Assembly (NCBI GenBank): GCA_046160625.1
Contig: JBJXGZ010000044.1
Coordinates: 736-64,735 of the forward strand
Source: Saprospiraceae bacterium
GTDB lineage: Bacteria; Bacteroidota; Bacteroidia; Chitinophagales; Saprospiraceae
DNA: 64,000 bases
Reading direction: 5' to 3'
A program made the translations under genes and the position numbers. Shown here piece by piece: positions 10,972 through 44,060 of the stretch. The number at the start of each line of letters is the position of its first letter. Positions within the stretch are counted from its first letter, which is position 1. Under the pieces are notes generated by a model. The model had not been told where the DNA came from. It saw only the letters and a list, made by a program, of their open reading frames with translations, and did not search any database.

Positions 10972-12006
10972 TTGTTCAATCTCTTTAAATTCTTTAAACA
11001 AGAACTCGCCGTTGACCTTGGCACTGCCAATACGCTCATCATGGTAGACGATCAAGTGGTAGTAGATGAGCCTTCTATCGTGGCTATGGATCGTGCAACC
11101 AAACAAACCATCGCTGTGGGCCATCGCGCCATGCAGATGCACGAAAAAACACACGAGAATATCAAGACTGTGCGCCCGCTCAAAGACGGGGTGATTGCGG
11201 ACTTTCAGGCTGCTGAGGCCATGATTCAGGGTATGATAAAAATGGTGGGACGTCGCAGAAATATGTTCAGCCACTTAAAAATGGTCATTTGTATTCCCAG
11301 CGGTATCACTGAGGTAGAAAAACGTGCTGTGTTCGATTCTGCCGATCACGTTGACAGCAAGGAAACCTATCTTATACATGAGCCAATGGCAGCCGCACTC
11401 GGCATTGGCCTCAATATTGAGGAGCCTATTGGCAACATGGTTATTGACATTGGTGGCGGCACTACGGAAATTGCTGTCATTGCACTTTCGGGCATTGTGT
11501 GCGACCAAAGTATTCGCATCGCTGGCGACGAACTGACGAACGACATTATGAACTATATGAAGCGCGAGCACAACATGCTCATTGGCGAGCGCACTGCAGA
11601 ACAGATAAAAATCAATGTCGGCTCGGCATTGCACGAACTAGACAACCCGCCACCTGATTATGCCGTGAATGGCCGCGACTTGATGACTGGCATCCCCAAA
11701 CAAATCAAAATCGGCTACCAAGAGGTGGCATATGCGCTTGATAAAAGCATTAGCAAAATCGAAGACGCCGTGCTCCGAGCCCTCGAACTCACTCCGCCCG
11801 AATTGGCCTCCGACATTTACAAAACCGGGCTTTACCTCACTGGTGGAGGAGCACTTCTGCGCGGATTGGACAAACGGCTGGAATCCAAAACCAAGTTGGA
11901 TGTTCATGTAGCAGATGATCCGCTTCGCGCTGTAGTGCGTGGCACTGGAATGGCACTGCGAAACACCCAACAGTACTCATTTTTGATTGACCGCAAAAGC
12001 GTTTAA
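10972..12006 (+). CDS. mreB: Rod-shape-determining actin homologue MreB
   Basis: Motifs LAVDLGTANTLI, DIGGGTTEIAV and GGGALLRGLD are present. The start is TTG; no in-frame ATG lies nearby. Confidence 0.95.
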   Translation: MFNLFKFFKQELAVDLGTANTLIMVDDQVVVDEPSIVAMDRATKQTIAVGHRAMQMHEKTHENIKTVRPLKDGVIADFQAAEAMIQGMIKMVGRRRNMFSHLKMVICIPSGITEVEKRAVFDSADHVDSKETYLIHEPMAAALGIGLNIEEPIGNMVIDIGGGTTEIAVIALSGIVCDQSIRIAGDELTNDIMNYMKREHNMLIGERTAEQIKINVGSALHELDNPPPDYAVNGRDLMTGIPKQIKIGYQEVAYALDKSISKIEDAVLRALELTPPELASDIYKTGLYLTGGGALLRGLDKRLESKTKLDVHVADDPLRAVVRGTGMALRNTQQYSFLIDRKSV

Positions 12007-12008
12007 TA

Positions 12009-12136
12009 GATGTATGATGTATGATGTATGATGTATGAACTATGATGTATGAGATAATAGTAATGCACCGATTTTATCTCATACATCATAGTTCATACAT
12101 CATACATCATACGTCATACGTCATACATCATAGTTC
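12009..12136 (+). repeat. Heptamer (TGTATGA) tandem arrays forming a ~49-bp stem hairpin between mreB and mreC
   Basis: The left array (12011-12052) has 6 units and the right array (12079-12134, complementary TCATACA) has 8 units. The loop is 12058-12073. The two non-Watson-Crick positions are U-G wobbles in the sense transcript. Confidence 0.9.
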
Positions 12137-12141
12137 TACCT

Positions 12142-13029
12142 ATGGGCAAGCTTCTTCAACTCCTGCTTCGAAATGGTGGCTTTGTCACCTTTCTGTTGGT
12201 AGAGATTGGATGCTTTGCTATCATGGTGAATTTCGAGACGCGACACAAGGAAATATGGGCCAATACGACCGGGATTTTTGGTGGCCGTGCGCTTGAAAAA
12301 CGCCAGATAGCTGCTGATTACTTCAGCCTTTATGAAACGGCTGACAGCCTTGCGCACATTGTGGACAGCCTGCAAGCTCGGCTCTCAAATGCCAAACAAA
12401 TGCAGGTTTCCATCCGCGACACGTTTTTCCTGGCAAACTATGATTCGCTATCGAAAACGGACTCAGTACGTCGCAAAACCATTCGCCCGCAGTACGAATT
12501 TATTACTGCGAAATCCATTAAAAATTCCATCGCAGGCACGAACAATTGGTTGATAATCAACAGAGGGAGTGTGGATGGTATCCAAGCAGATATGGCCGTT
12601 GTAAGCGCGGAAGGCATCGTGGGCATCGTACGCCATGTGGGTACCAACTTCTCCCTGGTTATGTCAATATTGCACCTGCAATCCAAAATATCCGTGGCTT
12701 TGCCAAATCAGAAAAACGCATTTGGTTCGCTAACCTGGGAAGGCGGGAATCCAAATGAGATGATGCTTCGATACATCCCTCAACACTTTATTGTCAAAGA
12801 CAAAGAACCGGTGGTGACAAGCGGATATTCCCTGATGTTCCCGCAGGGTCACCCCGTTGGCAAAGTCAAGGGCAAGCCCAAGCCGGATCCCGAAAACCCC
12901 TATTTTTTGGAAATCACAGTAATCCTCAGTCAAGACATGGCAACTGTGCGTGATGTAGCCGTGGTAAAGAATCTTTTTAAAGCCGAACTAGACAGCCTTC
13001 AACTTAAGATCAGCCCCCATGAACGGTAG
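12142..13029 (+). CDS. mreC: Rod-shape-determining protein MreC
   Basis: 295 aa with an N-terminal TM segment. It lies between mreB and mreD. The C-terminal beta-rich domain contains GIVGIV and PVVTSG segments. Confidence 0.85.
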   Translation: MGKLLQLLLRNGGFVTFLLVEIGCFAIMVNFETRHKEIWANTTGIFGGRALEKRQIAADYFSLYETADSLAHIVDSLQARLSNAKQMQVSIRDTFFLANYDSLSKTDSVRRKTIRPQYEFITAKSIKNSIAGTNNWLIINRGSVDGIQADMAVVSAEGIVGIVRHVGTNFSLVMSILHLQSKISVALPNQKNAFGSLTWEGGNPNEMMLRYIPQHFIVKDKEPVVTSGYSLMFPQGHPVGKVKGKPKPDPENPYFLEITVILSQDMATVRDVAVVKNLFKAELDSLQLKISPHER

Positions 13030-13540
13030 CAATATCACGCCTAATATTTTGAGATTCATAGGGTTGGTAGCCGTTCAGCTGCTGCTGCTCAATCAAATGA
13101 CGAACACGGTGGGGGAGTATTTCAACGTATTGCTCTACCCGCTATTTATCCTTTTTTTGCCATTGCAGCTACCTACGCCCTACCTGATATTGCTGGGTTT
13201 TGCAGTAGGTTTTACCTTGGACGCATCCCTTGGTACTTGGGGAGTGCATGCGAGCGCAGGAGCGTTCAGCGGATTTATGCGCAGCATTGCTTTCTGGCCT
13301 TTTGCACCTAAGGGCGGGTTTTCTTCCAAAGATCCAATTTTCGCCCCGGCGCACATGGGTTGGCAAACGTTCTTGCAGGGAACGGCCCTTTTCATGGCGT
13401 TCCATATTTTATGGTATTTTACGTTTAGTTATTTTGCTCCGGTCTTTGGCTGGGAGATTTTGAAAAAAACGGTGACGTCATGGGTATTCACCATGATATT
13501 TGTACCACTTTACGTTGCAATGTTCAACCCGAAGAAGTAA
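13019..13540 (+). CDS. mreD: Rod-shape-determining protein MreD
   Basis: 173-aa polytopic membrane protein. It overlaps the end of mreC by 11 nt, in the conserved mreBCD order. Confidence 0.75.
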   Translation: MNGSNITPNILRFIGLVAVQLLLLNQMTNTVGEYFNVLLYPLFILFLPLQLPTPYLILLGFAVGFTLDASLGTWGVHASAGAFSGFMRSIAFWPFAPKGGFSSKDPIFAPAHMGWQTFLQGTALFMAFHILWYFTFSYFAPVFGWEILKKTVTSWVFTMIFVPLYVAMFNPKK

Positions 13541-13551
13541 CTATTACGCTT

Positions 13552-15555
13552 ATGAAATACGGCCTTGACCGACAGCGCAATATCCAGATCGTTTTTTTGG
13601 CTTGCTCCATTGTGTTGGTGCTACAGGCAGCCAACCTGCAGCTGCTAAATAGATCTTATGCCGAATTGGCGGACGCTACTGCCATTGAAGAACTTACAGT
13701 GTACCCGCCCCGTGGCATTATCTATGACCGAAATGAAGAACGCATTGTGAACAATGAGGCAACGTTCGATTTGATGGTGACCTATAACCAGATGGATTTG
13801 AAGAAGATGGACGTGGCAAAGTTTTGTAGCATCTTGGGTATCAAAGAGGATGATTTCAAACGGAATTTGGACAAGGATTGGCGGAGCGGGAAATTCTCTA
13901 AATCAGTGCCCTTTGTTTTTTTGAAAAAAATATCGCCCGAAAAAAATGCCCGGCTTTTGGAAAGCCAGTATGAATTTCCAGGCTTTTTTGTGCAAGCCCG
14001 GAGCATTCGCGGCTACCCTTTTAATGCCGGCGCACACGTATTGGGCTACATTAACGAGGTGGATCCGCGCGATATAGAGCGAAACAAGGGCAAATACCAA
14101 ACTGGCGACTATATCGGAGCAGCCGGCCTGGAATTTGGTTATGAAGACTATTTAAGGGGCAAAAAAGGCATTACCAACCTGCTGCGCGACAATCTGGGGC
14201 GCATTGTCGGAAAATACAGACATGGAGAACGCGACTCGGCTGCAATAGCCGGAAAAGATTTGGTGTCGAGCATTGACATTCAGCTACAAGCTTATGGTGA
14301 AAAACTGATGGCCAATAAAACGGGAAGTGTAGTAGCCATAGACCCCAAAACAGGACAGATACTGGCCATGATTAGCGCCCCGACCTATAACCCCAATTTG
14401 TTGGTGATGACCAATGAACGCGGGCAAGAGTTCAGCCGGCTTCTCACAGACCCCCTCCGTTATTTTTTCGATCGCACTGTGATGGCTAAGTACCCACCGG
14501 GGTCCATTTTTAAAACGGTGGTTTCACTTATAGGATTGCAAGAGGGTGTAATCAATATAGATGGGGGGTTCAATTGCTCGGGAGGCTATTTCTACGCTGG
14601 CAGACTTTATAAATGCCATCATAGCGGTCACTTGAATGGTGTAGTGGATGCGCTTGCACATTCCTGTAACACTTATTACATGAACAAGTACCGCGATGAA
14701 ATAGACAAGTTTGGATACAACAACCCGCAGGCTGGGCTTGATTTGTTCAACAAATACATGGTCCAGTTTGGCTTCGGTCAAAAACTTGGCATTGATTATC
14801 CCAACGAAAACCCGGGAGGTTTCCCGACTTCGGCCTACTATGACAAGTTGTATCCCAAAAACGAGGGTGGTTGGCATTCTCCTACTATTATGTCCTGCGG
14901 CATCGGGCAAGGCGAGTTGCAACTAACCACGCTGCAAATGGCAAACCTTGCAGCATGTCTCGCCAATCGGGGCTATTGGTATCCGCCCCATTTGATCAAA
15001 GAGTTTAAAGACGGGACTCCCATCCCCGAACGCTTCTACGAAAAGCATGAGGTGGGCGTTGACCGGCGGCATTTTGAAACAGTGGTTGAGGGGATGCACC
15101 AATGTGTTGTACGCGGCACCGCTCGTATTGCGCAAGTGCCCGGTGTGGCTGTTTGCGGCAAGACTGGCACGAGCCAAAACCCTCATGGGGATGACCACTC
15201 GGTGTTTTTTGCTTTCGCGCCAAAGGAAAACCCGAAAATCGCCATTGCGGTATACGTCGAAAACGCCGGCTGGGGAGCTTCCTATGCAGCACCAATTGCC
15301 GGCTTGATGATCGAAAAAATGCTCAATGACACCATTTCTGCCGATCGTCTTTATATCGAAGAGCGCATGGTTAATGCTGACCTTACTTCTAAAATTTTGG
15401 CAAACCGGGCACAAGAAAAAATACAGGCCAAACTACCAAAGCCTAAACCTGACTCGCTCCCGGACCCGGCTAAAATACCGACTGAAATACCGGATGCGGT
15501 GACCCAAAAGGGGGCAAAGCCACAAAACGCGAAACCACAAAACAATCGGAAGTAA
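13552..15555 (+). CDS. mrdA: Penicillin-binding protein 2 (elongasome transpeptidase)
   Basis: Internal ATG gives MKYGLDRQRNIQIVFLACSIV, a TM anchor. Motifs SxxK (GSIFK), SxN (SCN) and KTG (GKTGTS) are present. The C-terminal tail is low-complexity and P/K-rich. Confidence 0.9.
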   Translation: MKYGLDRQRNIQIVFLACSIVLVLQAANLQLLNRSYAELADATAIEELTVYPPRGIIYDRNEERIVNNEATFDLMVTYNQMDLKKMDVAKFCSILGIKEDDFKRNLDKDWRSGKFSKSVPFVFLKKISPEKNARLLESQYEFPGFFVQARSIRGYPFNAGAHVLGYINEVDPRDIERNKGKYQTGDYIGAAGLEFGYEDYLRGKKGITNLLRDNLGRIVGKYRHGERDSAAIAGKDLVSSIDIQLQAYGEKLMANKTGSVVAIDPKTGQILAMISAPTYNPNLLVMTNERGQEFSRLLTDPLRYFFDRTVMAKYPPGSIFKTVVSLIGLQEGVINIDGGFNCSGGYFYAGRLYKCHHSGHLNGVVDALAHSCNTYYMNKYRDEIDKFGYNNPQAGLDLFNKYMVQFGFGQKLGIDYPNENPGGFPTSAYYDKLYPKNEGGWHSPTIMSCGIGQGELQLTTLQMANLAACLANRGYWYPPHLIKEFKDGTPIPERFYEKHEVGVDRRHFETVVEGMHQCVVRGTARIAQVPGVAVCGKTGTSQNPHGDDHSVFFAFAPKENPKIAIAVYVENAGWGASYAAPIAGLMIEKMLNDTISADRLYIEERMVNADLTSKILANRAQEKIQAKLPKPKPDSLPDPAKIPTEIPDAVTQKGAKPQNAKPQNNRK

Positions 15556-23091: not shown

Positions 23092-23197
23092 TTTTTTGAC
23101 AGGATTTACAGGATAAACAGGATGGGTGACTCCAACATGTCGGCGAAGCCGACAATCATTATTAAATCCTGTTTATCCTGTAAATCCTGTCAAAAAA
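23092..23197. repeat. Perfect 32-bp inverted repeat with a 42-nt loop; arms carry a 9-nt periodic ACAGGAT unit
   Basis: ttttttgacaggatttacaggataaacaggat (23092-23123) is the exact reverse complement of 23166-23197. The loop holds a mini-hairpin, tgtcggcgaagccgaca. The element lies immediately downstream of the ctaA stop. Confidence 0.9.
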
Positions 23198-24306: not shown

Positions 24307-24392
24307 TTTTTTGAAACACATAGGAACATAGGACACATAGAGGGGCCGGGTATAAAAACTATGTGTTCTATGTGCCTATGTGTTTCAAAAAA
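24307..24392. repeat. Inverted repeat with 34-bp arms (2 mismatches) and an 18-nt loop; 8-nt periodic ACATAGG unit
   Basis: ttttttgaaacacataggaacataggacacatag pairs with ctatgtgttctatgtgcctatgtgtttcaaaaaa. The element lies 33 nt upstream of the ctaA ATG. Confidence 0.85.
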
Positions 24393-26237: not shown

Positions 26238-26390
26238 ATGTTGATTTGTTTATTTGGGGATTTGGTTATTTGAGGTGCCAAAGCTTAGATGCCGTTAAGA
26301 GGACAATACTTTTGTCCTGATTTTCAGTGAACACAAATTCCAATCTTTGGCACCTCAAATAACCAAATCCCCAAATAAACAAATCAACAT
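26238..26390. repeat. Perfect 46-bp inverted repeat separated by 61 nt; arms carry an 8-nt periodic (G/T)ATTTGNN unit
   Basis: atgttgatttgtttatttggggatttggttatttgaggtgccaaag (26238-26283) is the exact reverse complement of 26345-26390. An inner hairpin, aggacaa/ttgtcct, sits in the spacer. The right arm overlaps the last codons of the aldehyde dehydrogenase gene. Confidence 0.95.
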
Positions 26391-31026: not shown

Positions 31027-31087
31027 CGCAACGCCGCAACGTCGCAACGTTTTGTAATTTGTATCGTTGCGACGTTTCGACGTTTCG
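31027..31087. repeat. Hairpin with 23-nt arms (20 paired) and a 15-nt loop; 8-nt periodic CGCAACGN unit
   Basis: cgcaacgccgcaacgtcgcaacg pairs with cgttgcgacgtttcgacgtttcg. It lies between the porU stop (31099) and the porV ATG (30970). Confidence 0.8.
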
Positions 31088-43975: not shown

Positions 43976-44060
43976 GGTGGTTTGTGGATTTGGTGATTTG
44001 AAGTGCACAAATCCACAAATCCACAAATCCACAAATCACCAAATCCACAAATCCACAACA
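43976..44060. repeat. Octamer tandem array (CCACAAAT, about 7 units) with a complementary upstream arm; slippable hairpin
   Basis: 44006-44060 reads cacaaatc x4, accaaatc, cacaaatc, cacaaca. The stretch 43981-44000, tttgtggatttggtgatttg, is complementary to 44032-44051. The array ends 3 nt before the eamA-like ATG. Confidence 0.85.

Follow-up and report, generated by a model that had tools for sequence, protein, structure and literature searches.

The hairpin that fills the spacer between mreB and mreC belongs to a dispersed family of foldback repeats and represents a copy without a gene, with arms of TGTATGA-type heptamers (general form NNNATGA). The TGTATGA family to which it belongs is tied to a four-helix-bundle element (TIGR02436/PF05635, S23p/Avd) that has the layout of the ORF-bearing intervening sequences (IVSs) of 23S rRNA. 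The explanation favoured here, which is considered probable, is that of a gene-less IVS-like foldback copy whose complementarity is kept mainly at the DNA level and whose transcript is cleaved by RNase III, an uncoupling of expression being a by-product. The window, i.e. the whole stretch of 64,000 nucleotides that was analysed, belongs to a genome of 5.5 Mb (155 contigs, 48% G+C), the relatives of which are metagenome-assembled genomes of Saprospiraceae/Lewinellaceae. The junction is composed of the following features (window positions):

10972-12006, + strand: mreB (NF010539, 464 bits), stop codon TAA at 12004-12006, 2 nt before the hairpin
12009-12057, + strand: left arm, four TGTATGA units, then ACTATGA, TGTATGA and GATAA
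12058-12073: loop, 16 nt, locus-specific
12074-12122, + strand: right arm, with two TCATACG units that give rise to both G-U pairs; 12079-12122 identical to C93:11030-11073
12123-12136, + strand: extra right-arm units TCATACA and TCATAGT, unpartnered on the left, the last one pairing locally with the mreC start region
12142-13029, + strand: mreC (NF010532, E = 3.3e-65), ATG 5 nt past the array
13019-13540, + strand: mreD, remainder of the operon (NCBIfam)
13480-15555, + strand: mrdA/PBP2, remainder of the operon (NCBIfam)

The two arms of the inverted repeat (12009-12057 and 12074-12122) are 49 nt long and 96% complementary with 16 nt between them, and the hairpin scan counts 47 Watson-Crick pairs, 2 G-U pairs and no other mismatch. 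TRF describes the left array (12009-12052) as a heptamer in 6.3 copies and the right array (12079-12136) as a heptamer in 7.7 copies or a 21-mer in 2.8 copies. Thus, the inverted-repeat scan and TRF confirm the geometry given in a preliminary description of this DNA, a 49-bp stem with a 16-nt loop and six versus eight heptamer units in a spacer of 135 nt; that the right array finishes 5 nt ahead of the mreC ATG follows from the coordinates (12136 and 12142).

In comparison with shuffled sequences the predicted fold is exceptionally stable on both strands, with −83.9 kcal/mol (z = −14) for the sense and −78.5 kcal/mol (z = −11) for the antisense RNA, and none of the shuffles matches either energy. 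Alternative registers of the arms reach −56.8 and −55.7 kcal/mol versus −78.7 kcal/mol, and since they are about 22 kcal/mol weaker, register switching is negligible at equilibrium; the idea that the unequal unit numbers permit alternative registers has therefore to be given up on energetic grounds. The earlier placement of the mreC initiation region in or next to the structure holds; the AUG has a predicted unpaired probability of only 0.02, within a local stem of 6 bp. This stem (12128-12145) is predicted to arise from base pairing between CATAGT of the terminal repeat unit and CTATGG, within which lies the start codon of mreC. Any NNTATGA-type array adjoining a CTATG start would pair with the start codon in the same way.

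The genes mreB, mreC, mreD and mrdA almost certainly form a single transcript spanning the hairpin; joint transcription of mreB and mreC is made likely by the lack of a terminator and by relatives in which the spacer measures just 0–2 nt. An intrinsic terminator, one of the functions proposed before, was rejected for the hairpin, since the stem lacks a U-tract, and the terminator scan is blank at this position (3′ flank CATCATAGTTCTACCT). Sister families do not qualify as terminators either, because their T-runs lie 5′ and their A-runs 3′ of the stem, the reverse of what a terminator requires. A promoter for mreC within the loop was likewise discarded: the overlapping matches are weak (9 of 12) and the regional count is at chance, in a scan confined to promoters of the sigma-70 type as distinct from those of Bacteroidota. 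Rfam gives only matches below the gathering score to microRNA precursors and snoRNAs, which fit any long hairpin, so that no known RNA family was assigned.

Long hairpins are abundant in this genome. There are 839 with a stem of at least 18 bp and 293 with a stem of at least 35 bp, and within 1.31 Mb 201 real hairpins compare with none in shuffled sequence. The arms of many of them consist of tandem units of 7–9 nt which can be grouped in families. The TGTATGA family comprises at least 44 loci, all built as (TGTATGA)n–spacer–(TCATACA)m, in which n and m differ, and with spacers of 16 to about 500 nt that are non-homologous between loci. Its polarity is identical in all of the 23 hairpins scored, and its copies adjoin the flanking ORFs at 0–10 nt. 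The mreB-mreC hairpin is therefore not operon-specific, given at least 44 TGTATGA loci and 839 long hairpins. Hairpins with a stem of at least 25 bp occupy 22% of the convergent, 11% of the tandem and 6% of the divergent intergenic regions, the gene calls for the genome-wide statistics coming from a crude ORF caller.

The window itself contains six further intergenic hairpins of this class, with other units (1349-1438, 23092-23197, 24307-24392, 26238-26390, 31027-31087 and 43976-44060), whose units include ACAGGATNN, CACATAGG and GGTTATTTGG. Another family, ACAGGAT, has a conserved GTCGGCTTCGCCGAC core, stem extensions made of T-runs and A-runs, and dozens of copies genome-wide. Stop codons in all frames of the 5′ arm were considered as a general property of such elements, which is true for TGTATGA but not for other families such as GGTTATTTGG or ACGATGG. 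Among the relatives, many contigs of G004, G008, G023 and G032 end within TGTATGA-type arrays; such arrays hence break short-read assemblies and are probably under-counted.

The closest link to a protein-coding element comes from a sibling copy at C82:94286-94956 (L043:1687-2357), where six TGTATGA units and 13 TCATACA units enclose a four-helix-bundle gene. The ORF (94420-94857) encodes 145 aa, scores 92 bits with TIGR02436 and matches PDB 2RLD. At this locus the last repeat unit supplies the ATG of the downstream gene (TCATAC-ATG), and in the orthologues the left arm is followed immediately on its inner side by a conserved TTGTAACTTTA-like motif, which may be the promoter of the four-helix-bundle gene itself. 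Inverted tandem-unit arrays bracket six of the ten TIGR02436 genes in the genome, each with a different unit, and the unit types around these paralogues recur gene-less elsewhere in the genome. With a flank of 200 nt, four of the seven called TIGR02436 genes are bracketed versus 18 of the 1516 small genes overall. At the order level (30 genomes) the bracket is found around 14 of 30 TIGR02436 genes versus none of 56 shifted control windows. The closest homologues of the C82 protein in the genus have inverted heptamer arms without exception (12 of 12), mostly of the NNNATGA type. Inverted-repeat brackets also surround two GxxExxY genes (TIGR04256; C126:37944-38375 and C65:18193-18594, L050 and L051), a second type of small cargo.

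PF05635 is known as an Avd-like family (PMC10053308). In Coxiella the intervening sequence of the 23S rRNA contains an S23p ORF and an inverted-repeat stem of 28 bp within which RNase III cuts, and it carries tandem heptamers in strain-variable number (PMC4990558). The long terminal inverted-repeat stem, the number-variable heptamers and the embedding in a longer transcript are shared between the ORF-bearing IVSs of Coxiella burnetii and Leptospira (PMC4990558) and the element described here. However, the IVS resides in helix 45 of 23S rRNA and bears the four-helix-bundle gene (PF05635/TIGR02436) in its loop, whereas the mreB-mreC copy lies between two protein-coding genes, and its 16-nt loop holds no such ORF. 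The stem of the mreB-mreC copy measures 49 bp and consists entirely of repeat units, compared with the 28 bp of the IVS. Excision by RNase III was shown for the IVS; for the mreB-mreC element it is proposed by analogy, and the gene for RNase III (rnc) is present in the genome. Because the PF05635/TIGR02436 ORF occurs only in the C82 sibling, the mreB-mreC copy is filed as an ORF-less relative.

Arrays and gene are also lost together. G061 has no match to three consecutive TGTATGA units, and a search with the C82 protein at E ≤ 1e-10 yields no homologue; at three orthologous sites of this genome the hairpins belong to other families, and one of these lies beside a TCATACA remnant. G063 likewise gives no match to three TGTATGA units, and the C82 protein is present only as a fragment with an interrupting stop codon. 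The two genomes are non-sister and lack both the intact orthologue and the TGTATGA arrays, whereas relatives with the orthologue show 54 to 161 pattern matches (G000 161, G131 125, G032 123, G062 54). Two more genomes with the orthologue, G143 and G129, give 6 and 2 matches, and there the unit is shifted. G004 has 83 matches, and its orthologous C82 site lies at a contig end. What is new here are the gene-less copies having their arms in common with the four-helix-bundle element, and the joint loss in two genomes. It may be, though with clearly less than an even chance, that the gene-less hairpins, the mreB-mreC copy included, are non-autonomous partners of the S23p/Avd-like element, whose protein would recognise NNNATGA arrays and be required for maintaining or spreading them. 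In favour of such a partnership are the heptamer arms of all 12 homologues, the sharing of rare units in G129 and G006 (see below) and the loss in G061 and G063.

The history of the site was followed through a comparison of 32 distinct relatives. About 19 of them have some form of hairpin in the spacer between mreB and mreC, 17 with heptamer-array arms, and the arm units differ between species: TGTATGA, AGTATGA, TGAACGA, ACGATGG, GTGATGA, TTAGTTA, TTATCAG, GGTCAGG and TTATGAG/TGATGAG. Unit numbers vary in every orthologue. In a tree of MreB and MreC the TGTATGA-type hairpin goes back to the root of a clade that comprises at least 11 species, but five genomes within this clade have lost it or show it in decay. 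L001 (genome G061), which with 95% MreC identity is the closest relative, retains only a weak hairpin of other sequence (−23 kcal/mol), and a spacer of 38 nt in L002 (genome G063) looks like a remnant of the right arm. In L005 and L007 the spacer is reduced to 2 nt; as these two are sisters, about four losses are counted. G143, which lies outside the tree and has an MreC 77% identical to that of the window, has a spacer of 0 nt. Absence of the element in close relatives, named beforehand as an argument against a regulatory role, is thus partly borne out, given the weak and different hairpin of the closest relative and the 0–2-nt spacers of three others. The hairpin is old yet dispensable, since it is ancestral to the clade but was repeatedly lost or decayed. 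Its persistence at the junction spans roughly 15–30% of MreC divergence, which, along with the occupancy in about 19 of 32 relatives, could mean that the site benefits from a hairpin and that the element is more than a by-product. In G129 a second mreB 3′ end (L113; G129:C165:7672-9455) is followed by a TGTATGA hairpin without mreC; the next gene is, from its translation, presumably of the ruvC type. A mixture of strains in the metagenome-assembled genome could account for this second end, as could a paralogue or a rearrangement.

How the complementarity of the arms is kept can be read from their relation to other loci. The 44-nt right arm with both TCATACG units occurs exactly twice in the genome, at mreB-mreC and at C93:11030, and therefore the two G-U pairs were inherited or copied and not selected locally. 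They had been taken as a sign of selection on the sense transcript, a view which this identity contradicts, as does the strand distribution of wobbles: among 290 hairpins between co-directional genes, 143 sense G-U pairs stand against 138 antisense ones (p = 0.81), based on a symmetric scoring of transition mismatches. An apparent sense-strand excess of 181 versus 148 was an artefact of asymmetric scoring. In G004 the C93 locus has an orthologue whose loop is homologous, whereas its arms are made of TGAACGC; hence arms are overwritten from one locus to another, and loops remain with their own locus. Unit variants, rare ones included, go with the genome and not with the site: the hairpin at mreB-mreC and the arms of the four-helix-bundle element have the same unit in G000, G032 and G131 (TGTATGA), in G129 (AGTATGA) and in G006 (ACGATGG); such a match fails in G008, G028, G139 and G031.

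Furthermore, the loop and inner stem bases of the mreB-mreC hairpin in the window correspond to the reverse complement of the loop in the orthologous hairpins L003 and L004, with a score of 12.0 in reverse versus 5.5 in forward orientation, and none of 2000 shuffles reaches 12. A loop flip of the same kind is seen between L008 and L006. In G129 the orthologous four-helix-bundle element, at the same junction (L098; G129:C159:5737-9171), is wholly inverted with respect to both flanking genes, which is what recombination between inverted arms would produce. Taken together, the arms changing in concert within a hairpin and between loci of one genome, the loop flips between species and the lack of a strand bias indicate that inverted arrays recombine and convert one another at the level of DNA; selection on one RNA strand is not indicated.

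On the explanation favoured here, the element would have filled the spacer between mreB and mreC completely from the ancestor of the clade (at least 11 species) onwards. Slippage would alter the number of heptamer units, while recombination and gene conversion, both between the inverted arms and between loci, would homogenise the units and sometimes flip the loop. Transcription of mreBCD-mrdA would give rise to an almost perfect double-stranded RNA of 49 bp, which would most likely be cleaved by RNase III in the manner of IVS stems. Such a cleavage would sever the mRNA of mreB from that of mreCD-mrdA, take away the stem crowding the mreC start codon and free a G-poor leader upstream of mreC. 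If the levels of MreB are uncoupled from those of MreC/D/PBP2, a selfish or semi-selfish repeat whose side effect is tolerated would be a more likely cause than a purpose-built riboregulator. The single steps differ in their probability. The element is very probably transcribed through, and its RNA is probably cleaved by RNase III, by analogy to the intervening sequences; we infer that RNase III processing or a structural barrier is likely to separate the mRNA of mreB from that of mreCD-mrdA. That cleavage measurably uncouples expression has somewhat less than an even chance, and it is unlikely that this effect is the reason why the element was kept.

Another explanation assumes that selection on the sense transcript produced a dedicated cis-regulatory RNA, which would set the ratio of MreB to MreC/D/PBP2 by attenuation, by stabilisation of the mreB 3′ end or by occlusion of mreC initiation. 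This explanation is decidedly improbable, although a hairpin occupies the junction in about 19 of the 32 relatives with both arms changing in step, the sense RNA folds slightly more stably than the antisense RNA and base pairing is predicted for the AUG of mreC. A stabilising effect on upstream cistrons is known for REP-type hairpins, as in malE-malF, which also counts for a regulator of this kind. Against it speak the presence of the TGTATGA element at 44 or more unrelated junctions, the G-U pairs, which are copied from or shared with another locus and accompanied by no genome-wide sense bias, and the lack of a U-tract. Moreover, five genomes of the clade lost the hairpin or let it decay, including the closest relative and three with a 0–2-nt spacer, and occupancy is equally persistent at the C82 sites A and B and at C93. 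From the regulatory reading of the preliminary description it stands that a real structure fills the spacer inside a likely single operon; that it was purpose-built for this operon does not.

The opposite view is that of purely selfish or neutral palindromic DNA without a meaningful effect on expression, whose stem is unwound by ribosomes or helicases or is simply irrelevant, and which persists by its recombination dynamics. The family-wide behaviour, the repeated loss, the absence of a strand bias and, in G061, the turnover or takeover of the same sites by other hairpin families are all compatible with it. However, a 49-bp RNA duplex of about −79 kcal/mol, ending 19 nt before a start codon, would hardly be inert in the presence of RNase III, and the depletion of hairpins between divergent genes implies that position matters for fitness, which makes this view unlikely too. 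Far less credible is a third proposal, namely that the arrays are DNA- or RNA-binding sites of a cognate four-helix-bundle or nucleoid protein and that the mreB-mreC copy would act when occupied by this protein and not via its hairpin. Each four-helix-bundle paralogue has its own unit type, found gene-less elsewhere; G061 and G063 lack the intact orthologue together with any TGTATGA array; and paired tandem 7/8-mers of Geobacter were interpreted as IHF/HU sites (PMC2700814). But the joint loss concerns only two lineages, one of them with a small genome, the units do not match in four genomes, and common descent plus gene conversion would explain the co-variation without any protein.

Several families of dispersed repeats resemble the TGTATGA element in part. 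We found nothing specific in the literature on repeats of Saprospiraceae. Dispersed heptamers with convergent inverted pairs were described in Xanthomonas (GGGAATC) and Nostoc (PMC4692102) and paired tandem 7/8-mers in Geobacter metallireducens (PMC2700814). These repeats have in common with TGTATGA that they form intergenic arrays of variable unit number, often as convergent inverted pairs with the potential for stem-loops, and that they lie near stop codons, being enriched between aligned and depleted between divergent ORFs. They are G-rich and were interpreted as G-quadruplex formers or IHF/HU sites, whereas TGTATGA has no G-tracts or GGG run; the searched passages of both reports are silent on a link to four-helix-bundle genes and on a concerted evolution of arms.

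The REP/BIME and REPIN elements of E. coli and Pseudomonas are evolutionarily labile, high-copy extragenic palindromes as well; they lie in operons just past stop codons and can confer stability on the mRNA upstream (PMC3116915, PMC3733652). In contrast to the tandem-heptamer arms found here, REPs are GC-rich imperfect palindromes of 20–40 bp with conserved heads, mobilised by the Y1 transposase RAYT. A REP/RAYT identity was rejected because none of eight PF01797 matches is flanked by TGTATGA arrays; their flanks are unrelated inverted repeats or hairpins, or there are none. Thus, unlike RAYT-linked REPs, the Y1 transposase genes of this genome have unrelated hairpin flanks. One of them, an IS200/RAYT-like Y1 gene at C97:1879-2750, has hairpins with a 25-bp stem on both sides (GTCTGACGACTNAAAGTCGTCTGAC) and represents a separate REP/RAYT-like system. 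With regard to MITEs, the arms are shared between copies and the loops are unrelated between loci, and no target-site duplication, transposase or clean insertion event was seen. The foldback transposons of Drosophila (FB, Galileo; PMC4079207, PMC3573991) share terminal inverted repeats made of short tandem repeats, unequal arms and a heterogeneous or absent centre, but they are eukaryotic and encode a transposase, so that the resemblance is a structural analogy only.

What appeared to be a bespoke riboregulator of mreB-mreC is a view onto a genome-wide process, in which heptamer foldback repeats occupy about one tenth of the gene junctions in this lineage, evolve in concert and flip their loops, and are tied to S23p/Avd-like four-helix bundles, a gene family that is also found in diversity-generating retroelements. 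If the RNase III step is true, many polycistronic mRNAs would be cut, which bears on the prediction of operons and expression in Bacteroidota. A true link between protein and repeat would provide the first testable role for the widespread ‘four helix bundle protein’ family and would explain the scattered over-represented heptamers of Xanthomonas, Geobacter and cyanobacteria. Should the gene-less hairpins indeed be partners of the S23p/Avd-like element, hundreds of Saprospiraceae spacers would be a protein- and RNase III-addressable ‘punctuation’ of operons.
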